A stretch of DNA of 64,000 nucleotides, from the IMG/VR virus record IMGVR_UViG_3300031994_000047, positions 30,304 to 94,303 of that record, one strand, 5' to 3'. Under the pieces are notes generated by a model. It was not told the DNA's origin. It saw only the letters and a program-made list of their open reading frames with translations, and made no database searches. A program made the translations under genes and the position numbers. Within the stretch, counting starts at the first letter, position 1. Each line of letters begins with the position of its first letter. Source of the DNA: a virus. Taxonomy: Duplodnaviria > Caudoviricetes. Positions 1,547 through 62,266 of the stretch are shown here, piece by piece.

Positions 1547-4500
1547 TCACGGCACAGGTATGCGCCCCTCTGTAATCCATTCTCCGCCATAAAAGCGTGC
1601 GAAAGTAATACCATCATCTACATCTATTCTGACTCTCCATAATGCTATATCATTAGAACCATATCGGCTTGCCGCGTTATAATAAAACTCAAGATAAGGA
1701 TTGCCATACAACCCATAAATTGGACCCTATGGTCTATCACTTGGCGACACACCGCTAAGATCAACTTCTCCAAATCCCATTCGATTTATGCCATAAGAAG
1801 TCACAATCGGATTCTTATTTGCATTTAAAACACCAGTCTAAAGTGCGTCCATCGGCATTGTACCTGAATCCACAACTTTAGTCCAAGTTACACCACCATC
1901 AGTAGAAGAACATAATCCACGCGAAGTAAGTTTTGTCATAATATTAGGATTTTCTTTATCTATAACAGTATAACCAGTACCATCTTGAAGTATATTATTC
2001 ATATTACCGCTAATTTTTTGATTGGCTTGAATCGCTTCTTGAACTTTTTGCGCGCTCAATGCACCAGAAGAACTCAAAAGATTTGCCGCCCGCGCATAAG
2101 AACCTTGCGCGAACTATAAGCTCTATGTTTCAGCAGTTATTCTCTAAAACAAATCTTCAAACTAAGTCTTATAATTCTAAACTTTCACAACATCTTTTTC
2201 TGGCTCTTCAAAATAATAAGTAATCTCATATATATAAACAGGCTCTTTGTGTGGAGTCTTTACACCATAAACTAAATCATATCCAAAATACTCTACATCC
2301 TCAATAAATGTAATATCTCCCACATCAAAGTCTTTACCTTTGAACTCTTCAAGCGCGCCGACTCTTAGAACATCAATTGTATAAGATACTTCGGGGCGCG
2401 CGGATGTATAGGCAACTTGAAGTGCATCTAAGTAGTATAAATTATCATCATAATACTTTTCATCATTCCAAGTTCCTTCTTGGATAAAGCGCGAATATGA
2501 TTCATAGAATTTCTTTTCTGCATTAGAAATAGCCGCTTCATGGGCTTTAATTTCTATTTCTAAATCTTTAAGTTTCCCATCAATACCAGTTTCGCTTATC
2601 TACTTTCCATATGCCTCATACTACGCTTCAAACTTAGCTTTCTCAGCCTACGCATTTTTATACTTATAATATTCTGATTGAATTGAACTTACGCCGCCAC
2701 CTTGTGTTTTCTATTTACTAATGTAATTAAAAACGGCAACATCAAAGTTAGTATCACTAGGAGGAGCATCGCGCATAAGTGAACGGATTCGTTCTTTAGA
2801 ACTTATAATCTATTTTTCAGCGCTTGTACGACCTTCTTCTGCCATATTATAAAGCGCTAAAAACTTTTCTTTTTCAGTTATATAACTTTGTTTCAAAGCA
2901 CCCTTTTCAGTAAGAGGCTTTATATTCTTACTTAAAACAGTATAAAGACCTTCTGGTCCATACATATCTCTTGTCAACTATTTTCTATCAATCAAACCTT
3001 TAGAAATATAATAATCAAAATTCAGTATATAATCTGCGCCAGACGTATTGTCTTGCGCGCGACCTATCGCGCAGAAGCCATAGGTTCCAAATTCATTTGA
3101 ATTTTGTAAGACAATTGTTTTTGTTGAAAGTGCATTTGATTTTATATTTCGTTTAATAGATTTTAGATCTATGCCATATACAAAACCATATCCTAAATTC
3201 ACGCCGAGCGTTGTATCGCCTTTTTTAATACGAACTTTTTTCTATAAGATCATACCATCTTCATCGTGGTCAATAATAAATTGAACCCAACACTTAAATT
3301 GCTCAGCAATTGTTTGAAGAATATTGAAACGATTTGATTGTTTCGCGCTAATTGTAGCTTGGCGCTCATAGTTAAGATAAACGGGTTTAAGATTTGGATT
3401 AACCCAATCTACTTTATCTTGGTATAAATAGGCTAAATCCTTAATATCCGTAATATTTTGTTGTTCAGTATGATTATAATAATTATAACGAACATAGGCT
3501 AGTGGTTCAGCATCAAAATCTTCAACATTATCGGGTGTAATAACAACTGGATCTGATTGCCCATCTTTTTCTAATTTGACTTCAGGATAGAACCTAAAAA
3601 CATAAGGTCTTAATGGAGAATCTAAAGAGCCGCCACCCTATTCCTAGCTATATGTATATTCAGAGAACATAAACCCATACTTATAAATACCACCATCAAC
3701 AAATCCATTAAATTGCTCTTTTCGAGATACAGACTCAGTAATTTCAATCTCTATTGTCCAGACCATAATTTTAAAAGTTGGCGGAATTACAGCACTACCT
3801 TCTGGCTATAAGTAATTTTCTTTATAATCAGTCTACTCATCAGAGTTCTTTTTAATTTTTGCTTCAACACTATTAATTTTTAAGAAATCATTAGTGTTAA
3901 TATTCTATATTATGTCTCCACTATCCTGATAAATATATATATGTGGCTCAAGTGGCGCGCGTTTGTCTTGTACTGATATACGATTTAATTCTTCTATTTC
4001 TTCGTTAGTTACTAAAAGTTCATAAGAAACTCTATACTTATTACCTTTTACTAACCCATTTGGAAAGTATGTCGCCGCGCCCTATAAAGTAGTATTATAT
4101 AAATACTAATCAGGAATAAGTGCTAGTCCACCATAATCTGCACTATCTGAGCTTTGTCTAAACCAAGTTCTTTGTGCGTATCCATCTCGAAGAACTGCAT
4201 ATCCGATTGCTGGCTAAGATTTATTAGCATTTCTTCTAAAGAAATACCAATTCATACTATCTGTAAACTGCTCTGGATTTACAATTAAATTATTAACTGC
4301 CGTGCAATCAAGAGTATCGGTATCTGTAAAACGATAAATTTCGTCGTTGCTACTTCCCAATTGCCATATCTAACAAACTCGATTTGTTAATGGATCGCAC
4401 CTACTTTTTATATGATTTACTATCCTTTGCGCGCGATATTGAGTTGAAACTAAAGCATTCGCACTTAATGTAAAATATGAGGTACTCTAATCTTTTAAAT

Positions 4501-5941
4501 GAAAACTCCAAAGATTAGCATTATAGGTCGCCGCGAAATTATCTACATAACACTAAACTCCATTTATTACAAGCATTCCGTCTTTTTCAACAATCGGCGT
4601 GCTATCAACATAATAAAATCCAAATCGACCTAAATCTACCTAAGTATTGTCTTCATAAGTTTGAGTCAATAACTAACTAACCTAAGAATAGAATAACATA
4701 ACTCTCCCGTATCCAGATAAAACAATTCGTCCTTCGCCATTTTCTAAAATGGTAGTTACACCAGCGCCGCCATTTGGTGAATTAGCTTCATAAACCGGTT
4801 CTTCTACATACTCTCTTATCGTATCACTATTTTCCGCATCATAACTCCAATCTGTACCTTTCAACACATCCGTTATTAAGTTCGGAGCAGTATCAATATT
4901 ATTCTATAACTCAATATCATAAGTAAGATTAAAACCCTATCGTGACAACTCAGAAATAAACTAATCTTCGCAAGTATAAGTTATGAGTTTTGAATCAGAA
5001 CTTTCATCACAATTCTTTATGATAAAATCATACCACTTATCTTTCCATTTAACTTTCAATTTCTACTCATTAAAAAGATATTGAATAAATGGATTTATAT
5101 AATGATCATCATAAACTTGGATTCTTCGATAGATTAGAGGTGTCGTATCTGGCTAAACTGCAAGCGCTTTGTTTTCATTATTATGTTGCACGAAATATCC
5201 ATATAGACTCTCAATAATATCTAAATCGTAACACTCTCTTAGCATTTTAAATGTGAAAGTAGAAGTTCCGTTTATGTTCTTTGTTAAGACGGGTTCAAGA
5301 GCGGAGCATTGAGCTTTAAATGTGTCAGTGCCAATTATTGCAACTTTTTTCTCAGTCGGAATTTTTTTTAAAGACGGAACATCAACTAAATTTGGAAACT
5401 CTGATTCAAAAAACTATATCTATTCATGTGCCTCATAGAAAATTGAATCACTAGAATTTTCTCCAATCACACAGCAATAATTATAAACTAGTATTCCAAT
5501 ATTATTTGATAAAATAGTAGAAGTATTATCTAAATTATAAACCGCCTCTGGATATAATGTTCGACCGCGTACATTCTCATTATTATGCAATATCTAATAA
5601 TATAAACCCTCTTTTCTGTTATTAGACTATTTAATAAAAGTATAATTATATGAAGAATCCCAGTCATTATTGGGAATAGCAAGCCTTAAAGCGTGGTTAT
5701 ATCCAAATCCCCTATGTTCCCAACCATCTTTATATAAAGTCTTAATAAATGTAGCAGCCTTATTCTTATTTTCAGGAGTTTGATTCTCTTGTCTCCAATA
5801 TTCAAAAGTAAAAGTAATACCTTCTTTTGGAATAATCTCTTTTATTTGTGCTGAAGCCACGAGATAAAACCAACCTACAACAGATGGCTTAAATGTGTCT
5901 TCCCATACGCTTATTTCATAAGGTTCTTGTATTGCAGCCAT
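1547..5941 (-). CDS. Tail-tip (Tal-like / host-specificity) protein, about 1,464 aa (TAG=Gln)
   Basis: Track fragments 5627-5941, 4682-4867, 2978-3202 and 1838-2077 share one frame and each ends at TAG; ends at TGA 1547; follows Dit. Not every codon between fragments was checked. Confidence 0.7.
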
Positions 5942-5953
5942 TATCTCACCTCC

Positions 5954-7637: not shown

Positions 7638-10600
7638 TTATCGGAGATAGCTTATGACGCGTGTGTTACGGTATTGTCCATCTTGGTAAATTTGTTGTTT
7701 AATGCGCGCGGCAAGTTGGTCTACGTCGTAATCAGATCCAATGTCGGCATCGATTTTTATGTCGAAGTATGTGTCACCAGTTAAGGAGTTTTGTTGAGTT
7801 GGATCGAAGTTACGAAGAATATCGCGGAGAGCGATAAAGTTTTGAGAATCGGATGGGTCTAGGACGACTTCGGGATGGGATTTTGTACCATCGAGCCAAG
7901 CAGGACCAGTAAAGTCTGCGAGACCACCTGCCTAATAGGTGAACCCAGCATTTGTGAGTTTTTTTCGAGTATATTCTGCCCAATCTTTCCAACTTGAGTA
8001 ATTCCAAATATAGGGAACTTTAACACTTCCAGAAGGTCTAAGATCCTTTTCCCCAGTCTTCACGCCAGGCAAATCCATAAAATTAAGATCCTTTAGAGCG
8101 TTCCAAATATCTGTTGGCATTAAATTCCCCTAAGACCAGTCCCACACATAATATGGATGATATAAACGAGAGCTATGATCGAGTTCATATCTTAACTTAG
8201 TTAATTTATCATACGTCTTTGTTATTGTATCATCGCTCCAAGTATTAACCTATTTTTCATCATAAAATTCGCTTTGCAAAATAGAATTCATTTTTCGATA
8301 AATGTCACCATCTCTAATAAGATTTTCTTCACTCTCAGAAATATTATCTTGACTAGTATTCTATTCTCCATTAGTTTCCTAAGTTATCTTATTTCTATTT
8401 CGTCTATTTTCAGCCGTCACGCCCATCTCTACAAGATCATAAATATATCCTTTTTCATTTCGTGCTTTGTTTAATAGATAAGAAGGCTATAGCTCTGGCT
8501 CTGATCCAAAAACTCCCTTTTGTTCATCGTACATAAGTCTATTCCAATCATCATAACCATAAATTTTATTTATTGCTTTTTTTGCTTCTTCTTCATCAAA
8601 AATATCTTTTGTACCTGGCTCTTCACCATCGCCAATAGACTAATTGCCCGTCTTATCAGCATCTTCTTTAGCTTTTGGTATCTTTTTTCCAAGTTCAACT
8701 AAATCGCCATCTGTTGCTAATTTATTACCTTTTGAGATATCTTTATTTATTTTTGTGGCACTTAATCCGCTTTCAATTTCTGTTTCTAAATCAGAAGTCC
8801 ACTTTTTCTATTGCGCATCAGTCATACCAAAAAATCCGTCTGCAGCCTATAAACGGCCAATAATTGATTTATCACCATTACTAAGCGCATCCTTCAAGTC
8901 TTGAATGTCTTTAGCTTTCCCGCCTTCTTGCCACATCTTATACTGACTCTATAAAACTTCAAGCTAATCAGTCTAAACTTTCATAACTTCTTCATTCTAA
9001 GTCTCAATCTCTTTCAGCGCGCTATCTACAATTCCATCAATATAAGACTCTCTTTTTGCATCCAATTCCTTCTAAGTCTTCATAATCTCAAGGCCATTTG
9101 CGCCAGTCGTATCTCTCTATAAATACGCAAGTCGATTCTCAAGTTCAGCAACTTCTTCTTCTTTTTTCGTGTTCTCTCTTATTTCTCTCTCAAGATCAAT
9201 ACTCTTCCTTAATTCATCAACAATTCTCTAATTACTTTGCTAAATTGCGTCATTTAATGCTTCTTGATCTTCAATTCTTTGTTCCCATTCTTTCTCTAGC
9301 ATATTTCCAAGACGATCTTCAAGAGTAATAATATCTTCGAGTCTTTCATCTTGTAAAGCCTTTAAATCATCAGTATTCTCATAAATCTCATCTTCTTTCT
9401 TACGAACCAAATCAACCGCTTTTTGTAACTCTTCACGATATTTATCTGCTGCTTCTGAATCATCTTTATCTGTCAATTTTGTATACGCATCGGTCATCTA
9501 AATGGTTCCAAACTCATCAACAGTAAAGTATTTCTATTGCTCAGCATATGTATGATCGACGCCGTTTTCATCTATCCAATGCTTGTTTCCAATATTCGCA
9601 AGTTCTTCCTTAGCAATTTCAAGTTCATTTTCCAAATTCTATCTTTGAAGCTATAATGCAGAAATCTCAAGCTCGCGCGCAGTTGTAACCTTTTGAATAT
9701 CAAGAGTTCCATCTGCAAGAAGTGCATTATATTCTCTCTAGTATTTTGAACGTTCTCTTTGAAGAGTAACTTGAATTTGATCCAAGTTATAAAGACGATC
9801 AATTTCATGAATAAAAGTCTCAAGACCTTTCGCGCCATTTTCAGTAGCAGTAATAAGATTCTTTAATGACTTTCCAAGATTCTCAGTACCTTCACCATAT
9901 TTCTTTTCAAGCTTTATGATATCTTCCCAAGCAATTCCTACTGCTAATGCTCTTTCTATAAGAATATCTGTAGCAGTATTTGAGATAAAATCTAATTCTT
10001 GAATTGTGTCTTGTATAGCAAGTTGAGCATCTGTTAAACCTTCATTATATGACTAAAGATATCCAACTACTTCTTTTGCAGTTTCTGGCTTAATAAACCA
10101 AGTTCCATCTTGCTTAAATGCTTTACCTTCAATATAATCTCCCATATGTGAATATAGGTTCTAATATTCTTCTTCTGTTAGCCCCTTATTTAACTGAAGT
10201 TTTAAAGCAATATCTACGAATTCTTGCCACTGGTCGGTTGTTTGCGCCATCTTACGACCAGCCTTTTCGCCATCTTTATACAGGATCTTAATTAATGCAT
10301 CAAAATCTTTTAAATCTACGCCTAAACTTTTAAGATAGTTGATAAACTATTGAACCGCAGGCATACCTTCTTTTGTTATATCAATACCTATTAAAGCCTA
10401 AGCAGCAATTTGTTGATTCTTACTAGATAGCTCATTAAAACTAAACTAAACACCAGAAGATTGTCTATGAACAGCTTCAGACTATTCCTTCGTTAATCCA
10501 TTGATCATATTATCCGCAAGCCCTTGTAAAATATCAAGAAGTCTACTTCCACCTGCTTTTTTATAATCATCTATAAAACTATTCAATTGTTCTTTTGTTA

Positions 10601-13600
10601 TAGTCCCAGCTTCAAATTCTGTTAAAAATTTTGAATTATTATTAAGTAAAGCATCTGATTCTAATTCAGCTATTTTTTCTGGAAACCTTGCTATTTCTTT
10701 TATTATATCCTGATTAAAGAGTGTTTTTGTCTTATACAAACCCGCTTTAGATAAGTCATCCTCTAAAATTCCTATATTATTTTCAATTAAATGTTCATAA
10801 TATTCTGGATCAAAATAAGTATTTGTTATAATTTCAGCTAATTTATCTCCATTACCAAAAATGTTAAGATCAATCATCGCTTTTTCAAAAGCTTTTTTAA
10901 CATTATCACTTTCACCGCTTAAAATAGCAGAAGCAATATCATCTAATTCTTCGGCGGTAACTTCTCTATCTGCTAGTCCACTCCAAAGTCCATAAGAACT
11001 TCCAATTAATTCATTAAATTCTGTTATACTACGATCTTTTATGGCTTGCTATATATCTTTATAGTTTGCAACTCTAAGTGTAAGTGGGCTTCCTATAAAA
11101 TGTTCCCACCACTGAATGCCAGTTGTAATTCCTCCAGAGCTTGCAATAGATGTCATTTCTTTATTTTCTGCTAGTGCGGCATTGTAATCTTCATAGGCTC
11201 TTTGAATATTAGACTGTCTTAGTTTAGACATCTCTGCTCTAAGACCTTCTTCGCCACCCTCTTTAAGTTTCCATTCGCCGTTTTCATAGGTAAAGAACTC
11301 TCTTAATCTAGGAATTGTCTTTAAAAGATTATTAACTGTATCATTTACTTTTTGTACTGATTGATTCCATTCATCGGTACCTTTTACTAACTCAGTAGTC
11401 TATTTTGAATATTCTGTTGTTAAGGTATCTAAAGCCTTCTCACAAGTATCGATTTCTTTGTTGGTCTCTTCAATTTTTTCTTTTAATTCTTCTTGCTTCT
11501 CTCTTAACTCATCAATTCTTCTTGAACTTGCGTTTGCAGCATCTGAAAAAGCTTTAATTGCTACAACTGCTCCCGCAATAACCGCAGCAATTCCAAGTAT
11601 CCACCAAAAAGCCGCTTGCATAATAACTCCTTTACCAGCAGCCTTTAAAGATTCATTACCTAAAGCCTAAATTGCTTGTCCTACTACTGGTAAAATGGCG
11701 CCGACAACCGATAATGCAGTACCAACTGTAGTTATTGCCTTACCAAAATCAGAAGTCTATTCTGGGTCCATCGCCGCAGAAAGCATTACTAGTGCAGTAC
11801 CAGCCGTTGATAAAGCCATACCCATTTTTTGAGTATCTACAGTAGTCTTTTGAGTTGTTAATCCAAATTCTAAGAATACCTTATCAACATTTTCTGCTGA
11901 CATACCAGTTGCAACTAAATTATTTCGTAAAGTTTCCACACTTCCATTAGCAGACTCAACCGCTTGAATCATCTAGCCAGTCTTTTCAGGATCTAAATTA
12001 GATTTTGTAATTAAACCATTCTAGCCAAATAGAAGATTATCTTGCTAATCAGAGCCGAAAGTTTTTTTCGCTAAAAAAGATGTCTTATTAAACCCAATTA
12101 AATTTTTAAAAGATCTTTTCTAACCTACTCCACTAACATTGGTCTTTTTTATCTCGCCTTCTACCGCAGCTTTAAATGCTTTTCCAGCTTCGGTTCCAGC
12201 CTCTCTAAATATTTTATTAATACTTCCAAAAAGTCCATTAAACACAGTTCTTGCAACCTTAAATCCACTCCAAAGCATTAGAATCTTTGGAAGAATTCCA
12301 GCCCAGCCATTTAATCCTTTTGTAATATTATTAATCGCATTAATAATACCAGTCAAGATATCTACAACACCCTTCACAAGATCAGATTCCATTAATCCCA
12401 TCGTAAAGGTATCATACGCATTTTGCAAACGATTTAATTTACTATCTAATGAATCTAGAGTCTTTCCAAATTGCTCATTAGATGCTCCAGCTGAATTTTC
12501 AGCAATGCTTACAAGTTCTTGTGTGCGCGCATAGTCTTGCATAAGTGCAATAAAACGCGATTGCTAACGCGAACCTGCCGCTTGTGTTGCAATATATCTC
12601 TATTGAACAGTGCTTAAAGTATCCCATTTCTCTGAAAGTTTCATAAGAATAGAATCCAAACCTTCAGTTCCCGCGAAGAAACCAGACATATCAATTCCCG
12701 CAACTTCTCTCAAAGCCGCAGAAATCTTGTTAAGATTTATAACTTCTCCTTCTTCATCTGTTCCAGTCAGTCCACCTTCAGAAGCAAGTTTTTTAACTTC
12801 ACCAAATCTAGAAACAATAGTTTTTAATGCGGTACCAGCAGTCTCAGGAGATTCTTGTGTAGTTTCAATAATCTATGTTAAGAATGCAGAAGTTGTTTCA
12901 AATTCCATACCCGCCGACTTAGCAAGTGAAGCAACTTTAGTCATAGCAGTTGAAATTTCATCCACATTAGCCGCAGCTTTAGCCGCAAGAGCAGAATAAA
13001 CATTATTGATACGTCCCGCACTAGCTTCATTAATTTCCATATTAAAACCACGCAAGGCGTTCGTCATACGTTTTGTAGCATCTTCCGCACCGAGTCCCGC
13101 AATACGAGCCATTTTTAGGGTTTCATTAGAAACTGCCATAACTTCATTTGTTTTTAAGCCCTATTGATAAAACAAAGTAGCAGACTCATATGCATCATGA
13201 ACCGATACACCAAGTTCATTTGCTCTACGTGTATATTCTGGTAACTGTGACCACATATCTCCAACAGAGAAGTTTGTAACCACAGCCGCTTCTGTCATAA
13301 CTTTGTCAAGGTCTTTAATAGTTGCAAAAGCCGAACGAGCCGCGCGCTTTAAAAGATTAATAGCATTTGCAGCGCCAAAGAAATAAGTAATTTTGTTTTT
13401 AAAATTCTCCATTTCTTGGTTCATTTCATTTTGAGCCTTTGCCGCGCCGAGCTATTCTTGAGTCATATTATCGAGCGCTTGAGCACCCTATTTTAACTCT
13501 CCAGTCTAAGCATCTATATATGCGTTGCCTTCGGCAAGTGCTTGCGCATAAAGCTTCGCAATTTCAGCGTTCTAGCCATCAACAATGCCTAAACGCTATT

Positions 13601-14240
13601 TAACCTCTGCTAAATTCTATGCTTTTTTAAGAGCATATTCCATCGCAGCAGCTAAATCTCGCATTTCTTTTGCATTAAAACCGCCGGCCTTGTTGAGTTT
13701 GGAAGTTGCTGTTATTGCAGCTTGTGCCGCCGCAAAATCTCCACTTCCCATTGCAGATTCAAAAGTGCCGACCGTTCCAGGAAGTTTTGTAGTGATTGCT
13801 GCTTTCGCGCGCTAATACTTTGTATTCTTCGCTTTAATAGATTTTGCCGCAATTGCGCCAATTTCAGTCTATGTCTATTTTATTGAATTATTGATGTCAT
13901 CAATCTATTGTTTTACACTCGCACTAAAAAAATCTTTTAATTTATCCTTTGGAATTTTATTTAAAAGTTCTGTTAAATGCGTCCAAGTATCGCCAATTTG
14001 TTTACTAGCCGTATTAAAAGCATTAATATCTTTATTGTCTTTTAGTCCGCGCGCGAGTGCCGCTCCAGCTTTCGCACCAGCATCCTCAATTTTTGTAAAC
14101 GCTTTTGAGAAAGATGACTAAAGTTTTTCAGGTACGCCTAATTTATTTAGAAATTCTTGAAGTTGCTTAGTTTTTGTAAGAGCGTCTTGAATGTCAGTTA
14201 CTACATTAAACTAAACAACTCTTTCAATTTTATCTGCCAT
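7638..14240 (-). CDS. Tape measure protein, about 2,200 aa (TAG=Gln)
   Basis: Nine track fragments (13424, 13139, 12542, 11972, 11621, 11231, 10877, 9497, 8120) share one frame from ATG 14240 to TAA 7638; TP901-type TMP core (AAAKAAANVDEISTAMTKVASLAK...); C-terminal GGLADFTGPAWLDGTKSHPEVVL. Confidence 0.9.
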
Positions 14241-14254
14241 TCTCCTTCAACTCC

Positions 14255-23674: not shown

Positions 23675-26580
23675 TTATCCTCCTGTAAAGAATACTAATT
23701 GTCTATTTGAAGATTGTTGGCGTTTATACCTTTTTAGATTTTCTTCTTCGAGTTCTTTTATGCGCCAAAGCCCATATTCAAAAGCAGAAAATTTATCTTT
23801 AGGAAAACGAGAATTTATTTTCTCTAAGACAATATCCAAACCGCTTCTTTTAAGTCGAAGATTCGCCATTTCTTCAAAAAGACGAGTAGTCATTTCATGC
23901 GGCATTAATCGTTGAGTTCGTTGCTCGAAACTCATTTTTTGACCTATTTTTGTAGCGAGTAATCTCGCGCGCGCCTCTTGTTCTGTAATAAGAAATCTCA
24001 CCATGCCGCTATTTACTCTTGTGTAAGCATTACTATGGATTTTTGAGTTAAGTGGTCCATTTGCTTTTAAAGAGTATAAGATTTGAGGCGCTTCTTTTGG
24101 CTAAACTTTTTGGTAATCTTTACTATTAAAGAAACCAAGTGGAGCAAGTTCCTATCCTTTTTCATTGAATTGGGTTTGAATCATTTCATCTGCAAGACCT
24201 ACCAGTTACCTTCCGCGCGAGTCGTTAAGTCGCGCGCGTTCATATGAACTGCTATATATTTCTATATAGTTGAGACTATATCTTTATCTTTTATAAGATA
24301 TCCCCTATTTCGACTCACTTGAGCCTACGGTATAAAACCTAGTCGTTGAACATTATTTAAGATTGGAAGTAACTTCGCGCCACATTCTACCATTTTTAAT
24401 CTTACCGATTATATCTGGATGTACACCATATTCATTAGATAAATCTATATTCCGTTCACCATTATTTCCACGGATATAAATTTCTTTTACCTAATTTGGT
24501 GTTAGCTTTGCAGCGCCATTCACTTTTGCTCGTAATCCATTTTCCATGGCGTGATGAATATTTTCTTCACAAGTTACCCATTCAAGGTTATATAAACAAT
24601 TATTTGTTTTGTCTCCATCAATATGATTAACTTGAAGTTGATCCATGTTTGGGACTGGACAAAAATTTTCCATTATCAGACGATGCACTGAATAACGATG
24701 AACCTTCTTAGGCGGTAAATCAGTTGAACATAATGCAACCTTCATATATCCATCCTTATCTTTGGTTTGAGAAAGAAATTTATTGCTTCTTTCACTCCAA
24801 ATTCTGCCATCATCTGTTACATAATAATTGAATTTTAATGGATACTTACAAATAGTAATTAGTTTCTTTTCCATATATATACACCTCCAATAAAAGTGTT
24901 TTTATCTTAAATCTTTGCTGCTGATTGTCCATAAGGAGTTTCCAGCAATTAAAGGGATTTTACTTGAGCATTTAGTCTACCCAAGCCGTTGCAATCCATC
25001 ACGACTTCTCGCGGATTAAATCTCTCAATCAATGTTTTCAAATCTGCTGCTTGGCGCGCGAAAGTTTTAGTTTCTGCTTGGCGTCCAATAACATATAAAT
25101 TAACGAGCGTAGCATAGTATTTTCCATTTCGCACTATAACTTTAAAGATACAAACAACAGATTGGTCGTGTAATCTACCTACCAATACTTTCTATATGAC
25201 GCGTTAAGTCATATACGTTCTCTTATGAACTGCTATATGTTTCCATATAGATAAGACTATATCTTTATCTCATAGAGATATTTTCCATTTCGATCTACTT
25301 AGATCTACTTCCTCTCGGAATAGTCGTTGAGCCAGTTTATACTGGCGCGGATTGGCTATTTTTTGTAGTACTTAGGTTTACACCATATACCATCTTGATA
25401 TTTGTTTCTACTTTCGTAACGTCATAATCTGAGGAAGATTATTTTAGTATATCAAGCTTTAAGCGTTCCCCGCATTAAAGAAAATTTACGCACACCGATT
25501 ACTCGGTGTGGGGACATAAATTTTATCCACCGAAAATAAGTAAAAATAATCGCTATTCTATAAACTTTTTTGCTGCCATTCTGGATTAACAAGTTTTCGA
25601 TATTTTCCAATTTTATTAAAATCAAACCAAGATTCTTTACTTCCCCCATCCCAAATTCCTAAATACTCTGCCGCAAAAGTCTTTTCATCATAAGAAGGAG
25701 AAAGCTTTAAGTTCTATACATACTTTTTATCAATAAGTCCGTGCAAAACTGGAATACGATAATCTAGCCCCATACAGAAACTAGTTTTAGGACTTATAAT
25801 TGATTGTTCAAGTACATCTATAAGCGCCGCATATGCGTAAGAAGATTTCTATCCCGCAGATGTAGCATATATAACTTGTGTATTAATAGACTCGTTTTGG
25901 TTTATAAGTCCATTTTCCATTCTTCTAGACACGTTCATCTAAGGAAGAATGATTTCTGCTATTGCGTCACCGTCCTAATCGCGCGCTTCATCTATGAGCG
26001 TTGCGTGCGTTCTAATTCCTCTGTCGGAATCAAGCGCACCGACCACTGATAATTTACTTCCATTTTTGAAGTATAACTCAGCATAATCTTTTGAAAAGTT
26101 CGCGCGCGGCTCTCCACCATAAACTTCTAACTCATCTTTTAATAGAGGCCAAATGCGCCATATCTCTTGAACTTTTTGTTTTGTTATCTTTGAAGCCTAT
26201 GACTTGTTCGGCGCAACGATAGAGCCAACATGATGTGGCAAGAACATACACTAAAGATACTTCGCAAGTATTGCAAGAAATGTTTTTGATGTAGCACGCG
26301 CCGCAGTAATGTACACATTCGTATATCTCATGCAGGCGCGCAAGAATAATCTCTAATAAGGAAAAAGCTTAAAATTTGATTTTACTGGAGTAATGTGATC
26401 CAAATATATATCAGGATACACAGTATATAGACTCCACATATTCGTTAAGAAATCTTCGTGCTATTCGAGCCAAGTGGGAGTAAGTATAACTCCTTTTTCT
26501 ACCTCAACACCGTCGCGCAACACACGGTCGCGCGCATTAAAAGTCATTATAGGCTCGCGCAGTTTAATAGGTTCTGACAT
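23675..26580 (-). CDS. terL: Terminase large subunit, 3 exons (26580-25525, 25182-24979, 24202-23675), 595 aa (TAG=Gln)
   Basis: LFPY-Q-R Q-motif, AARATSKT Walker A, TLIDE Walker B, YATSAG coupling motif; nuclease motifs SVD|VGR, DCNGLG|VGLAD and KDKFSA. Exon lengths 1056/204/528 nt are all multiples of 3. Confidence 0.9.
24203..24978 (-). mobile_element. Group I intron 2 in terL (776 nt) with HNH homing endonuclease
   Basis: P1 CUUGGGU/GCUCAAG with U.G at the splice site; AAUUGCUGGAAA (P), GUUCAACGACUA (R), AAGAUAUAGUCU (S); GAAA-loop P9; terminal G. Confidence 0.9.
24353..24874 (-). CDS. Intron-encoded HNH homing endonuclease, 173 aa (one TAG=Gln)
   Basis: VHRLI...QVNHIDGDKTNNCLYNLEW; continues KLTPN-Q-VKEIY into an HTH-like tail ending at TAA 24353. 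Confidence 0.85.
25183..25524 (-). mobile_element. Group I intron 1 in terL (342 nt, no ORF)
   Basis: P1 UCGGUG-GAU / GUC..CACCGA; CUCAACGACUA (R), AAGAUAUAGUCU (S); CUAUAUG-GAAA-CAUAUAG P9; terminal G; removal restores SVD-VGR. Confidence 0.88.
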
Positions 26581-30004: not shown

Positions 30005-30405
30005 CCCGCTTCAAATTTGAAATGCTGGACTGCTATCCTCACAACGCGGGCGCGCGGATAGAATGCTCTATCCGCTTCAGGCTGACGGGCGACGCGGGAC
30101 GGCTTGACAATGTGCGGGCTGACCGCGGGAGCGACGTGCTGACCTATCAGGTCAAGAGCGCCCGCGCAACAGTCGCCCACGGCACTGACCTGAGAGCCTA
30201 CCTGGCAAGCGATGCGAGTACTGAATATATCTATGGAACGCGAGACGGACAAGCTTACGTGATGAACCGCGAGACCTATATAAGCTTTTGCGAGAGGTTC
30301 GGAGCTATCACGAGAGACAGTGAAAAGAACGGCGGTGAGCAAAAGATACGACTCGGGCACGAAACGAAGGCTCTGCTGAGGTGGCTCGAGGAGCGGGTGG
30401 ATTGA
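30001..30405 (+). CDS. Hypothetical early protein, paralogue A, 134 aa
   Basis: AGGAGG RBS before ATG 30001; paralogue of 31278..31673. Confidence 0.8.
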   Translation: MTRFKFEMLDCYPHNAGARIECSIRFRLTGDAGRLDNVRADRGSDVLTYQVKSARATVAHGTDLRAYLASDASTEYIYGTRDGQAYVMNRETYISFCERFGAITRDSEKNGGEQKIRLGHETKALLRWLEERVD

Positions 30406-55548: not shown

Positions 55549-56370
55549 TCACCCCAATAACTTCTCTGCTAATCGCGCGACCGGACCTCTTTCGCATTTC
55601 TCAAGTTCCACAAATCCGAACTCCTTCTCGCCACTTAGTCTCTCAACAATCCTCTCCAAACCTTGTGACTTCTCAAAAGCAGTCCTATCACGCTACACAA
55701 TATCACCATCAATCCAAATCTAAGAACCCTCATCCACTCTACACATTAGCATATACAAGTGCTCAAGTGTTAGATTCTCCGCTTCCATAACATAAACAAT
55801 AGAATTTCTAATACTGCGCCCGCGCGCAAAGCCAAGTGGCATTATCTCTAAATGTCCACTTCCAATTAACTATTCCAAACCATCATAGCCGCCGCAGTGG
55901 TCTGCGAAAGGCAGCACATAATTCAACATCTTTGCGTTTACATCACCAGGAAGCGCGCCAAGTGCATCGGTTTCTCTTACTTGGACATTATTTCGTACTA
56001 CACAAATTTTCTCGAATTTTCCTTTTTGTATCGCTTCAAGCGCGCCAACAACGCAACCGAGTGTTTTACCACTACCAGCGCGCCCCATAATCAACTTAAT
56101 CGGCACATCGTCCGCGCGCAACAAATCAATCATACATCTCTACTAAGGATTGCGCGGCTTCATTTCTCCACTAAAACTATTCTATAAAGTCTAAAACTTA
56201 ACAGGAATAAATTTAGAATCTTTTAATTTGAAGTAATCTTTTATTTCACCCTCGCTCTAAACTAAAAGATATTGATTTTCTTTAAAACCTTCAATCTAAA
56301 GTTCTCCTTTATATAAAAGGTCTAGGTCATCTGCGCCGAGTTCTTTTATGTCATATCCTTTGTAACTCAT
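55549..56370 (-). CDS. phoH: PhoH-family ATPase, 273 aa (TAG=Gln)
   Basis: KPRNP-QQ, GRAGSGKT, LGALPGD, RGRSI, EAENL, GDIV-Q-RD; TAGs fall on conserved Gln positions. Confidence 0.9.
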
Positions 56371-57017
56371 TTAGTATTCTATACCTCCTAAAAGAAAACA
56401 GAAATATCATCAACCCAATCAGTAATGACGCCTTTTTCTTTTAGTATATCACCTCGAAGATACCAGTCTTTTACGATATTTTGTTTGACTTCTTCTTCTG
56501 TAAAGAGAGTATGTTCAATATAGAACTTTTCCATTTTCTAGACCTAAATTTTATAATCATCCATCATAGCCTAAACTTCTGCAAAAGAACCGCCAACATT
56601 CTCGCATCCACCCTAATGGAAGATGAAATATGAACTATGAAGTGCAAATCTTTTATGACAAGCAAGATATATCATAGATGCCGCAGAAGCCACAAGTCCA
56701 AGCGCATATCCATAAACTGGAGTCTTTGAAACATTTATCATAGATACAACAGTTTCCTCTACATCCAACGATCCGCCTGGACTATTAAAAAATATACGGA
56801 TTGGCTTGCGCCCATTCTCTGGAAGCGCGCGGTCTTCTCTATTCCAATATATAATTTTAGATACAATATCTAATGTATCTCCATCTATTTCTTCGTTTAT
56901 CCAAATAACTCTATTTTTTAAGTCATCATAATACTACAAAAGAGTAGGGTCTGGTAATGCAAGTGAGGGGTCTATAGTTTCACTTACTAATAATTCTACA
57001 AAGTCCTTGTTATTCAT
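56367..57017 (-). CDS. clpP: ClpP-like protease, 216 aa (TAG=Gln)
   Basis: FNSPGG, ASAAS, FH-Q-G; the readthrough frame ends at TGA overlapping the phoH ATG. Confidence 0.85.
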
Positions 57018-57168
57018 TGATACACCTCCATAGACTTCTCTTATACATAAGTGAACTTTCGCGCCCATCTTTATACAAAAGAAAAGAGACTAAGTATCAC
57101 CCTTAGTCTCTAAAATCTTTATTCTACAATAAGGAGTTATTCGATCGTCTCCCAACCGATCAAATTAC

Positions 57169-59553: not shown

Positions 59554-59786
59554 GAGACACTTTTTTTAAAGCAGGAATACCTGACAGTCGGCGAACTAAA
59601 GCCAAAAATTGCTGGAAGTGTCTCTACAACATTAAAATAACCAAGGCGCCTTTTGGTAGCAGAAATTAAAAGTTTCTTCCAATTAAAAATTGCTGTAGGC
59701 GCCTTTTCATTAATCATAAATCAAGACGGCTAAATTAAATTCAATATCGGCGAATTTTTTCTAAAGAAGATTGCTGAAACCGTCTT
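59554..59786 (-). ncRNA. Three tandem stem-CAGCAAU elements (59723-59786, 59643-59705, 59554-59624)
   Basis: AAGACGG/CCGTCTT, AAGGCGCCT/AGGCGCCTT and GAGACACTT/AAGTGTCTC stems, each 5' strand followed by CAGCAAT. Confidence 0.7.
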
Positions 59787-59793
59787 TTAAAAC

Positions 59794-61350
59794 TTAAAGT
59801 TCAGTTACGACCTTATCGTATCTTTCGTCCATTAAAGCCGTAAGCATAACATTTATAGGATCAATAGTTTCCTTCTTTTGGATCTTTCCATTTTCCATAG
59901 TGTACTCAACAGTAGTTCCATCAATTACAGACTTAAACAAAGAAGGAGAATATCCGCTAACCATAGCGCAATTTTCACCATTAACAGTTTCTTGGAACAT
60001 ACCCTTATCGCTAGCTCTTACATTCCAATAAACAATCGCAGGCATAGTATATCCATAAGACTCATACTTAGCGCGCATTTGGCGCATAAAAGTCAAACCA
60101 GAATTACGAGTCTTAGTCTTTGCATAACGATTAGAAAAATCGTAGTAATACTCAGTGGTTGCCGCATCGAACTGCATATCAGAAATAATATACAACTTCT
60201 TAGGCATATCCTTATCCTTAAGGTGCGCGCTAACTGCGGTTTGGAGAATCAAATCAAATACTGCTTCGAGGTTAGTATTTGAATCCCAATTAGCTCGCTC
60301 CATATTCTGAACCTTAGAGTAAATATCTGCGCCAATAATGGACTGAAGCTGAGGTCTCGCAGAGAAGGTAATGAAATGCCCCTTAAAAGGTCCACGGCAC
60401 TTATCTGCGCAATACATACCAAGAGAAAGAGCAACTTCGATAGGAGTTCCACTCATAGATCCAGAAGTATCTACAACGCAGATTCCAGTCTCTTCTCTTC
60501 CCTCAAGATAATTAGGCAAAGACTTCCACATCTTATCAAGCATTTCTCGTGACAAAGTATCCCCGCTAGGAAGTCGAAGCGCCTGATGTACAATATCTAC
60601 AGGGAAGAGCGCAGTTGCATTTATCTTTCCAGTAGTCAAATAGCGAGAATATCTATTATAATCGTGACGTGCGAAAGCCTTACGATAGTTAAGATGTGCC
60701 TTGCCAGGGACGGTATCATACTTAATATCTTGCCATCTGTTCTTGCTCATCTTCTGCTCTACAATATTGATATGAGATCTAAGAGCAGAAAGAATCTTAC
60801 GATACTGACGAGGAGTCATCTTCAGATTAATTCTTATATCGCGCGCAATAGCACGGGTTCTAGGAGATGAAGTATTCTCAGAAGGAAGCCACTTAGCAAG
60901 AAGAGAAATAGACTTTCCATTTCTCATACCAGTCAAATCCTCATCAATCTGAGTTGCAATAAACTTATAGATAGACTGACGAGTTCTAGGTGCAAACGCA
61001 TACAAAAGATCATCACTGCGACCATATTCCAAAAAGTTAGGAAGGTTTGCGATTACATAGCGAGGATGAAATTCTGCTAGCCACTTAGAAATAACGCGGA
61101 AAACTCTACGCATACCCTGACCACCGCGGCAGTCTCTAATATAAAACCAGAGACGAAGCGCGAGGTCCTTATTTTCTTCAAAAGCCTTCTCAAAAGTAAG
61201 AGTAATCTGAGAATCGGGCGCATCCTTCATCGCGCCGAGACTTCCAAATGCGTCTAATACCGCATTATTGGTTGACTTCAGCGCGCCCGCGCCATTTTCA
61301 GTCTCAGTAAAGTTAAATTCGTTCTTAAGATTCTTCAAAAATTCATTCAT
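59794..61350 (-). CDS. Ro60/TROVE-like (DUF2828-type) protein with a C-terminal vWA domain, 518 aa, no TAG
   Basis: TENGA, RDCRGGQGMR, AKWLPSE, YRKILS.LR, VVDTSGSM (MIDAS), ISDMQFD, YWNV, SGYSP. Confidence 0.8.
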   Translation of the reverse strand: MNEFLKNLKNEFNFTETENGAGALKSTNNAVLDAFGSLGAMKDAPDSQITLTFEKAFEENKDLALRLWFYIRDCRGGQGMRRVFRVISKWLAEFHPRYVIANLPNFLEYGRSDDLLYAFAPRTRQSIYKFIATQIDEDLTGMRNGKSISLLAKWLPSENTSSPRTRAIARDIRINLKMTPRQYRKILSALRSHINIVEQKMSKNRWQDIKYDTVPGKAHLNYRKAFARHDYNRYSRYLTTGKINATALFPVDIVHQALRLPSGDTLSREMLDKMWKSLPNYLEGREETGICVVDTSGSMSGTPIEVALSLGMYCADKCRGPFKGHFITFSARPQLQSIIGADIYSKVQNMERANWDSNTNLEAVFDLILQTAVSAHLKDKDMPKKLYIISDMQFDAATTEYYYDFSNRYAKTKTRNSGLTFMRQMRAKYESYGYTMPAIVYWNVRASDKGMFQETVNGENCAMVSGYSPSLFKSVIDGTTVEYTMENGKIQKKETIDPINVMLTALMDERYDKVVTEL

Positions 61351-61361
61351 TTTTAATACCT

Positions 61362-61419
61362 AGACTCTCAAAAATAATATCCAAATTATTATTATAAAAA
61401 ATAATTGCTGTAAGAGTCT
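61362..61419 (-). promoter_or_regulatory. stem-CAGCAAU element in the 5' UTR of the TROVE-like gene
   Basis: AGACTCT-TA-CAGCAAT...AGAGTCT ends 11 nt before the ATG; promoter at about 61445-61482. Confidence 0.7.
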
Positions 61420-61485
61420 TTTATCCTTTCCTTTTTTTCTTTCTGTAAATATTATAACATAAATTTTAAAAGATTTCAAATTTTC

Positions 61486-61596
61486 AAGACACTATTTAGT
61501 GCTCTACCAACTGAGCTAAAACACAACTTTGTGTCTATGGGATTCGAACCCATAACCCCTGCATTCTGAGTGCAAAGTAATTGCTGTAAGTGTCTT
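61486..61596 (-). ncRNA. stem-CAGCAAU element containing a circularly permuted tRNA module (Y-RNA/YrlA-like)
   Basis: AAGACACT..AGTGTCTT closing stem; inside are an anticodon-like hairpin, T-arm ATGGG-TTCGAAT-CCCAT, capped acceptor AGACACA-AAGT-TGTGTTT and D-arm GCTC-AGTTGGTA-GAGC. Confidence 0.75.
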
Positions 61597-61672
61597 TGGT
61601 AGCGGCAGGGAGGGTTGAACTCACCTTTTTAGCGTTGAAGGCGCTATGTACTAACCGTTATACGATGCCGCC
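61597..61672 (-). tRNA. tRNA-Glu(TTC)
   Basis: TAGCG-CCTTCAA-CGCTA, CCA. Confidence 0.85.
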
Positions 61673-62227
61673 AGATTGTTTATTTGATCGTCTTTTATTA
61701 TTACAAGATATACATCTTTTAGCATTTTTTGTAATTACTTTTCCACAATCAATACAATAGTTTAGCGTATGCTCTTTATGCTATTTATTTTTACCATTTG
61801 TTGTATCCAGCTAATAATTACAATTAGGACAAACCCAACGAAGATTTTCTAATCTATCATCAGTGTTTTTCCCATTAATATGGTCTAAAATTAAAGTTAG
61901 CTCTTTATTGTTCCAAAATGGCAACTAGCCACAAATTGAACATTTATATTCCGAATAATTTCCTTTATAATACCATTCTCTTAAAGTTTTCTGAGCAGCG
62001 GTTGAGTTTTCTATAAATATATTTTCAACAGAGCGTTTAGTTGGATTTGTGTTTGAAGTAAAATGAGAAATAGATAAATTTAAAGATTGAATCCGTAATT
62101 TCAAATTAGCTAAAGTTTTACCTGAAAAAGAGTTGTAACCCAACTAAAGCAAACAATTCTTATAGCTTGTACTTTCCTATACAATTCTAGCAAATTCTTC
62201 ATCAGAATACTAACTTAAAATAGACAT
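61658..62227 (-). CDS. HNH endonuclease, 189 aa (TAG=Gln), stop codon inside tRNA-Glu
   Basis: CSICG, LDHINGKNTDDRLENLRWVCPNCNY-Q-LDT, second Zn finger CIDC..CISC. Confidence 0.85.
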
Positions 62228-62239
62228 TAATATCTCCTT

Positions 62240-62266
62240 GTCACTCACCATTTAGACGATAGCGCC
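62240..62266 (-). pseudogene. 5' remnant of a tRNA-Glu-like gene
   Basis: GGCGCTATCGTCTAAATGGTGAGTGAC resembles the 5' third of tRNA-Glu (GGCGGCATCGTATAACGGTTAGTAC). Confidence 0.55.

Follow-up and report, generated by a model that had tools for sequence, protein, structure and literature searches.

Ro60 proteins and the small RNAs that accompany them provide the closest described counterparts for the locus considered here. Ro60 binds the stem of Y RNA, which tethers the protein to PNPase; the tRNA-like YrlA adjoins Rsr, is a substrate of tRNA enzymes, and has a protein-binding helix in place of the anticodon arm (Chen et al. 2014, PMC4201824); RNAs of this YrlA/YrlB kind occur in bacteria and mycobacteriophages. 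A phage version of this arrangement is found in the Thermus phage phiLo, the Ro60 of which binds both the adjacent Y-like RNAs Yrl1 and Yrl2 and host PNPase (PMC12135203; PDB 9KOP, 9L5Y). Here we analyse a stretch of 64,000 nucleotides (nt), hereafter the window, from a virus of the class Caudoviricetes (IMG/VR record IMGVR_UViG_3300031994_000047, positions 30,304 to 94,303), in which the gene for a 518-residue protein is bracketed by five short RNA elements. We consider it quite likely that this protein belongs to a divergent branch of Ro60 (TROVE plus von Willebrand factor A (vWA) domain) that corresponds to the DUF2828/DUF7788 family, and that its partner RNAs, resembling Y RNA, are the five elements.

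The elements all lie on the minus strand and share one arrangement, as a sequence-only reading of this DNA had reported: a closing stem, CAGCAAU and a variable cargo are present in all five. The stems are 8-9 bp long, differ in sequence and are always paired: AAGACACU/AGUGUCUU in element 1 (61596-61486), AGACUCUUA/UGAGAGUCU in element 2 (61419-61362), AAGACGGUU/AGCCGUCUU in element 3 (59786-59723; one G-U wobble included), the GC-rich AAGGCGCCU/AGGCGCCUU in element 4 (59705-59643), and GAGACACUU/AAGUGUCUC in element 5 (59624-59554). In each case, CAGCAAU comes 0-2 nt after the 5' strand of the stem and precedes 34-87 nt of unrelated cargo. Elements 2, 3 and 4 are minimal handle RNAs, element 5 has two small hairpins in its cargo, and element 1 has its handle, together with UACAGCAAU, around a circularly permuted complete tRNA body (see below). 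Folding z-scores are -3.05 for element 1 and -2.71 for element 4.

Bare CAGCAAT is not rare in this DNA (19 matches in the window vs 10.3 expected). The composite AGRY-N4-5-CAGCAAY is rare: the 94,303-bp record as a whole has six matches, five being the elements themselves and the sixth lying on the opposite strand, where it has no stem. Moreover, a covariance-model search of the 64-kb window with filters off found only these five elements. Because the two types of search yield just this set, we consider the motif to be confined to the surroundings of this gene, in agreement with the sequence-only reading, which had seen it nowhere else.

The same handle recurs at homologous loci, for which our test set comprised 80 IMG/VR loci fetched by protein alignment, plus annotated phages; a single-protein locus search of viral contigs found no relatives, and an alignment query was needed. 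Considered as sequence only, the 5' motif AGRY-N4-5-CAGCAA occurs 177 times on the gene strand vs six times on the other strand (84 loci). A downstream complement of at least 6 bp accompanies 88% of the motif occurrences, vs 28% with shuffled 5' strands. Pairing of at least 7 bp with the element's own 3' strand was seen in 57% of cases, vs 18% after the variable stem bases had been swapped between elements. When 33 short elements were aligned with MAFFT, six of the seven stem pairs were seen to change on both sides, and none of 500 shuffles reached the observed covariation score; since the rows of this alignment had been picked for pairing, the stem-base swap is the fairer measure of covariation.

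The covariance model built from this alignment (model R1) gave 153 matches in 90 phage loci (E <= 0.1), and a further 168 matches (E <= 0.01) in an independent set of 80 bacterial and archaeal loci that had contributed nothing to the seed. All 321 matches (170 loci) are on the strand of the gene. In our own window, R1 scores elements 2 to 5 at 49, 45.7, 43.5 and 33.2 bits, respectively, and all five elements have their handle on the gene's strand, within about 3 kb of the DUF2828/DUF7788 gene. When the whole genomes of phages wV8, A511 and Snenia were searched, R1 matches were found only within about 1.5 kb of the gene. There were zero R1 matches in the T5-like phage Bas27 (MZ501108), which has many tRNAs and no DUF7788 gene, and zero in Bxz1, a phage that encodes a canonical TROVE Ro60 but lacks a DUF2828 gene. 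The sequence-only reading had viewed stems that differ yet always pair as covariation within a single genome, and had staked its case on the motif recurring near homologous genes. The motif does recur, at about 170 independent loci and always on the gene strand. The RNAs constitute a real family in which the stem covaries and the unpaired motif is conserved.

The consensus handle can be written as (W)AAGRY-NNN-N-CAGCAA(U/A) ... A-rich ... NNN-RYCU(W)-G(U), or, in brief, as an AAG start, a covarying stem, CUUACAGCAAU and a CUUGU end; the consensus of the 33 phage elements is AAAGACACUUACAGCAAU...GUGUCUUGU. The G that follows the stem is kept in 91% of elements, whether or not it is pairable. 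Across loci, about 44% of the long cargoes carry a GGTTCGA T-loop; the short ones have nothing in common beyond an A-rich 3' strand. An 8-mer, UUCGCCGA, that is common to elements 3 and 5 was at one point taken for a second motif; it was dropped, being absent from cargo elsewhere.

Another key part of the argument is the protein, which is encoded at 61350-59794 (minus strand) and which combines a DUF2828 helical-repeat ring with a DUF7788 vWA domain that has a DxSxS MIDAS motif (metal-ion-dependent adhesion site). Pfam assigns DUF2828 at E 1e-37 and DUF7788 at E 2.9e-50. The AlphaFold2 model, made with 49 homologues, has a predicted local distance difference test score (pLDDT) of 80.9 and a predicted template modelling score (pTM) of 0.80. 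In Foldseek comparisons of this model with the PDB, Ro60/TROVE structures rank first (E 1.3e-7 to 8e-5); this top group includes phage phiLo Ro60, Xenopus and human Ro60, and Deinococcus Rsr. With VIA-align, the ten best matches are all to Ro60 chains (Z 17.8 to 11.8, 380-411 residues aligned), led by 1yvr at Z 17.8 over 406 residues and including phiLo Ro60 (9kop) at Z 16.5; matches to the vWA domain only have Z-scores of 11 or below. The MIDAS residues D294, S296, S298, T359 and D391 are invariant among the 49 homologues. The earlier description of a Ro60/TROVE-like, DUF2828-type vWA protein is thus borne out with respect to fold, Ro60 being the top match near full length and well above the vWA-only matches. 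Because fold searches find Ro60 and sequence searches do not, the modelled protein is best described as having a Ro60 architecture outside the TROVE sequence family. The TROVE profile does recover the Bxz1 protein.

This family is large: we counted more than 6,000 DUF2828/DUF7788 clusters at 90% identity (E <= 1e-10). It is represented in 700 phage records, among them Felix O1-type phages, KVP40, A511, Staphylococcus and Campylobacter phages, and cluster L mycobacteriophages, and it also occurs in many gut and rumen bacteria. Some database records already name homologues 'Ro-like RNA binding protein' or 'RNA-binding protein'. A protein atlas returned only viral and bacterial DUF2828 clusters, and is uninformative on eukaryotes. 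The closest homologue in a cellular genome collection (55% identity) is in L106, a 126.7-kb contig (JAGCWW010000043.1) from a yak-rumen 'Acholeplasmatales' metagenome-assembled genome; this is probably a related phage contig that was binned with that genome, which is a hint that the phage of the window has its habitat in the rumen or gut.

How, then, do the RNAs compare with Y RNA and YrlA? Element 1 gives a full-model match to YrlA (RF02553) of 35.4 bits (E 2e-6; gathering score 69), which is carried by the T arm, acceptor hairpin and D arm, with mispairing in the basal-helix columns. A YrlA-like element beside the Snenia gene scores 39.3 bits. Bearing in mind that the YrlA-type RNA beside the true TROVE gene of Bxz1 scores just 32.5 bits, such sub-threshold scores are normal for phage tRNA-like Y RNAs, for which the gathering score is a weak criterion; that Bxz1 RNA has a GCCGAG box at the position of CAGCAA. 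Among the five elements, the tRNA-like module (T arm, acceptor-like hairpin, D arm) is found in element 1 only. Its cargo runs from an anticodon-like arm (loop CUCAGAA) through the T arm and an acceptor hairpin (with a 4-nt closing loop) to the D arm. Removing the handle in silico and joining the D-arm side to the anticodon-like arm yields a sequence that ARAGORN, run with a relaxed threshold, recognises as a complete tRNA (anticodon CAG), which is why we describe this cargo as a full circularly permuted tRNA body. Elements 2-5 belong to no Rfam family, and permissive scans of the element regions yielded nothing beyond chance-level matches (such as snR82, sau-41 and Yfr10). Across the window, Rfam at gathering thresholds gives only tRNAs and one group I intron. 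The question of whether the elements belong to a described Rfam family, on which the sequence-only reading had made novelty depend, therefore has a divided answer: the short elements are in none, whereas element 1 yields a sub-threshold YrlA match through its tRNA-like cargo.

The GNCGAAN0-1G box is missing from all five elements, which have CAGCAAU in its place; the earlier statement that there is no GNCGAANG box is correct, in that the sole CGAA in the elements is within the T-loop of element 1. Thus, the locus resembles Ro60/Y RNA systems in pairing a helical-repeat ring and vWA/MIDAS protein with several small RNAs beside its gene and on the same strand, in which a stem joins the RNA ends next to a conserved unpaired motif; as in YrlA systems, one RNA per locus often includes a T arm, an acceptor hairpin and a D arm, which form a tRNA-like module in permuted order. 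On the other hand, the phage protein, unlike Ro60, is not detected as TROVE by sequence and is assigned by Pfam to DUF2828 plus DUF7788. The conserved box of its RNAs is CAGCAA(U) rather than GNCGAAN0-1G or CGAA, and, unlike Y RNA, the handle elements keep their outer stem pairs and a 3' G(U) tail. There are also two differences from YrlA: element 1 retains an anticodon-like arm, with the handle placed between the D arm and the anticodon arm, and most handle elements are minimal RNAs of about 60 nt that have no tRNA part.

A second resemblance, which the sequence-only reading had not noticed, leads outside Bacteria. The Class I RNAs of Dictyostelium are about 60 nt long, start with AAG, end with CUGU, and have a covarying stem of about 6 bp that joins their ends; in their unpaired 11-nt motif, U, C, C, A and A at positions 3, 6, 9, 10 and 11 are nearly invariant, and they are reported to be unique to dictyostelids (Kjellin et al. 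2021, PMC7919456). Rfam RF01414 gives uCCUUACAGCAAUua as consensus, and the corresponding stretch of element 2 is CUCUUACAGCAAUUA; element 2 agrees with the Class I consensus at 13 of 15 bases. The consensus of the phage elements given above matches every described Class I feature, its 3' end being one base longer (CUUGU or CUAGU). The likeness extends to size, to the AAG start, to the covarying end-joining stem with an unpaired 11-nt motif beside its 5' strand, to the variability of the rest of the RNA, and to the presence of several clustered gene copies. In contrast, Class I RNAs are eukaryotic, have been reported from dictyostelids only and are preceded at about 60 nt by a DUSE promoter, whereas the phage locus has a sigma-70-like promoter and a tRNA-operon context; moreover, the known direct binder of Class I RNA is Rnp1A, an RNA recognition motif protein. 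The RF01414 model gives the phage elements only 10-15 bits (gathering score 41.5), with element 2 at 14.6 (E 0.38) and element 4 at 10.3 (E 4.7) in their own genome. That the CAGCAA-handle RNAs and Class I RNAs might form one RNA family, with a DUF2828 Ro60-like protein as common partner, is an idea that we regard as rather unlikely.

A function has been reported for a phage protein of this general type. Gp130 of Bas63, a Felix O1-type coliphage, is Ro60-like, is encoded just upstream of tRNAs, and counters the ppl defence, to which Bas63 becomes sensitised upon loss of gp130; the preprint identified no RNA or motif, and its authors guessed that Y RNAs might be included in the neighbouring 'tRNA genes' (10.1101/2024.10.10.617714). 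Phage wV8, also of the Felix O1 type, offers a parallel to this region: three to four CAGCAA handle elements are interspersed with the tRNAs beside its gene.

Proximity to tRNAs is a general property of these loci, which hold 409 same-strand tRNAs; roughly 40% of the neighbour gaps that we measured between an element and a tRNA or another element are 0-20 nt. In 28 of 85 loci an element ends no more than 60 nt upstream of the start codon. Vibrio phage KVP40 is a particular case (L092:2966-3005, upstream of KVP40.0300): a 5-bp mini-handle, GACAU-UUUACAGCAAU...AUGUC, has a GAGGA ribosome-binding site in its loop, and its 3' strand is formed by the gene's own AUG. The layout of this mini-handle suggests translational autoregulation by the Ro60-like protein. 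Two further observations concern RNAs that are neighbours of handle elements. In Listeria phage A511 (L093:1507-2058, upstream of gp57), the tRNA and small-RNA region that has the handle elements also contains a match to ROOL RNA (RF03087; 87.5 bits, gathering score 99.1). In Synechococcus phage B23, a 110-nt 'tRNA-OTHER' (L001:4863-4972; Rfam tRNA 51.4 bits over a long span) directly follows a 48-nt handle element (4808-4855); it may be either a tRNA that contains an insert or a tRNA body linked to the handle.

In our window, the array is delimited by two tRNA genes, both on the minus strand and both called by ARAGORN. The 3' end of tRNA-Glu (UUC; 61672-61597, with encoded CCA; Rfam tRNA 47.7 bits) abuts the first base of element 1, and tRNA-Thr (UGU; 59545-59470; Rfam tRNA 54.3 bits), the last gene of the array, lies 8 nt past element 5. 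Element 2 is in the 5' leader of the gene: its 3' strand, which ends 11 nt upstream of the AUG, leads into a putative ribosome-binding site, AGG. Element 3 starts 7 nt past the TAA stop codon. Upstream of element 2 is a candidate sigma-70-like promoter, TTGAAA-17-(TG)TATAAT (61479-61451, minus strand), which agrees with 11 of 12 consensus positions and has an extended -10, this being a consensus match only; from its position it could drive transcription from element 2 through the gene and elements 3-5 to tRNA-Thr. Between this site and tRNA-Thr we found no terminator-like sites bar one chance-level match inside the open reading frame (ORF). The simplest reading is one transcript that comprises element 2, the gene, elements 3-5 and tRNA-Thr, with element 1 being part of the upstream tRNA-Glu unit. 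Near-perfect promoters of this kind (TTGAAA/TTGACA, 17 nt, TATAAT) form a minus-strand series (63101-63073, 61479-61451, 59204-59176, 58886-58858 and 58361-58333) that splits the tRNA and small-RNA region into short units.

By analogy with published Ro60/Y RNA systems, and in view of the evidence for a handle family, the elements are probably partner RNAs of the protein. In the mechanism that we envisage, the protein-binding part would be the handle, namely a closing stem whose outer pairs are conserved (5' strand W-A-G-R-Y, 3' strand R-Y-C-U-W), the unpaired 5' stretch N-CAGCAA-U, which lies opposite an A-rich 3' strand, and the conserved G(U) tail. Each RNA would also have a free cargo: a whole permuted tRNA body in element 1, and small hairpins or AU-rich loops in elements 2-5. 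These RNAs would be made within phage tRNA operons, element 1 after tRNA-Glu, element 2 in the leader, and elements 3-5 between the stop codon and tRNA-Thr. Since element 1 starts immediately behind the tRNA-Glu CCA, and 8 nt separate the end of element 5 from tRNA-Thr, we lean towards release of the RNAs from operon transcripts by the enzymes that trim tRNAs; an RNase P cut at the 5' end of tRNA-Thr would then define the 3' end of element 5. The protein would grip the handle, leaving the cargo to serve as a tether or decoy for host factors, for example exoribonucleases, enzymes that recognise tRNAs, or defence nucleases directed at tRNAs. A role in anti-defence or RNA protection, by analogy with the described systems, can be put forward only tentatively, and somewhat more doubtful still is the idea that the protein, by binding element 2 in its own leader, would repress its own translation.

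Several other explanations must be weighed against partner RNAs of a Ro60-like protein. The elements could punctuate or stabilise phage tRNA operons, either as processing sites (RNase E, RNase III or RNase P) or as protective hairpins, and act without the DUF2828 protein, such that the link to the gene arises just from its residence in tRNA clusters. The packing of the elements among tRNAs, with tRNA-like spacing, would fit this proposal, as would the abutment of element 1 on the tRNA-Glu CCA and the 8 nt between element 5 and tRNA-Thr. However, T5-like Bas27, with a big tRNA cluster and no DUF7788 gene, gave zero matches, and the elements of Snenia, Staphylococcus phage BE02 and Campylobacter phage NCTC12673 lie close against the gene, with hardly any tRNAs or none in between. 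Furthermore, an unpaired hexamer and a G tail are conserved across phages of Actinobacteria, Firmicutes, Proteobacteria and Cyanobacteria. That conservation argues for one shared recognising factor, and the gene is the only common neighbour; we judge operon punctuation to be improbable. Even less probable is the proposal that the elements are ordinary YrlA or Y RNAs and the protein an ordinary Rsr, with nothing new beyond annotation. The full-model RF02553 match of element 1 (E 2e-6) and the equally modest score of the Bxz1 YrlA beside a true TROVE gene speak for it; against it, the former match rests on the tRNA-like module while the basal-helix columns are mispaired, the Rsr box is absent, four of the five elements have neither a tRNA part nor an Rfam match, and Pfam TROVE does not match the protein. 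In addition, the CAGCAA model gives nothing in Bxz1, with its GCCGAG box.

We consider it just as improbable that the elements are not free RNAs and act solely in cis, as translational operators or attenuators for the DUF2828 gene and neighbouring genes. The position of element 2 in the leader, the 28 loci with an element close to the start codon, and the ribosome-binding site and AUG within the KVP40 mini-handle would fit such operators; most elements, however, are far from start codons, either downstream of the gene or between tRNAs, and several elements per locus carry tRNA bodies, unlike operators. The least credible of these alternatives, to which we attach almost no weight, is that of DNA-level repeats, for example recombination, homing or packaging sites. 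The elements are repeated, they contain inverted repeats, and an HNH endonuclease gene is nearby. DNA-level repeats would nonetheless be hard to reconcile with the strand bias of the R1 matches (321 on the gene strand, 0 on the other), with stems that covary while pairing persists, or with the G-U pair of element 3, which would be A-C on the other strand.

The preferred explanation, in which the elements are partner RNAs of a divergent Ro60, also has points that weigh against it. Pfam TROVE gave no match to the 518-residue protein, for which only DUF2828 and DUF7788 were reported at E <= 1. Neither phmmer with the protein nor a 49-sequence profile found Ro60 among PDB sequences, only the fold comparison having linked them, and that match to Ro60 has a root-mean-square deviation of 4-5 A and an identity of 10-16%. 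On the RNA side, 13 of 85 loci have no descriptor-defined element inside 3 kb, KVP40 has only the weak 5-bp version of the handle, and the gene-lacking controls are two genomes, a single example of each kind. We found no conserved motif in the cargo of the short elements, and for this reason an effector role for cargo, including the interchangeable effector loops of the sequence-only reading, is a conjecture. Finally, Bas63 gp130 is a putative member of this family, on the basis of the wV8 locus and the preprint's description.

The window has other features of note. Stop-codon recoding is known in gut phages, and TAG serves as a sense codon here: frames of at least 100 residues cover 57% of the window under the standard code vs 87% with TAG as sense. 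The longest frame with TAG as sense has 2,202 residues and 52 in-frame TAGs, and PhoH-like (130 bits) and ClpP (71 bits) genes align to Pfam through 8-9 in-frame TAGs; minus-strand examples of recoding are at 7641-14246, 1550-5953 and 55552-57164. The Ro60-like gene itself has no in-frame TAG. A tRNA with encoded CCA at 59152-59081 (minus strand; Rfam 38.1 bits, missed by ARAGORN) has the anticodon loop CUCUAAA, that is, the amber-suppressor anticodon CUA, and is likely the decoder of the recoded TAG. Between tRNA-Lys and tRNA-Glu (61658-62251, minus strand) is an HNH-endonuclease-like ORF of 197 residues, which is open only when six TAGs are read as sense and which matches Pfam HNH_3 weakly (E 0.0011). 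A group I intron (RF00028; 70 bits, above the gathering score) lies at 25233-25534 on the minus strand.

Our searches of the literature on DUF2828, on DUF7788, on Ro60 with phage and on Ro-like with phage found no description of these RNAs. What is known here is Ro60 with its Y RNAs; the differences lie in the clade of the protein, in the motif for recognition and in the RNAs, most of which are minimal. With an RNA partner, DUF2828/DUF7788 would change from a domain of unknown function to a ribonucleoprotein that can be tested. The system would widen Ro60/Y RNA beyond TROVE proteins, and would do so with a second recognition code. To our knowledge, Class I RNAs have been without an explanation since 2004, and the match of their handle to that of the phage elements gives a concrete protein candidate for this old open question in Dictyostelium biology. 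If the two sets of RNAs do belong together, Class I RNAs would take the part of 'Y RNAs' in a second lineage of Ro-like ribonucleoproteins that viruses, bacteria and eukaryotes share, possibly by way of gene transfer. For the phages themselves, the whole or partial tRNA bodies in several members of the family, the tRNA-operon setting, and the report of one putative member as anti-defence may together explain how large phages protect or mimic tRNAs.

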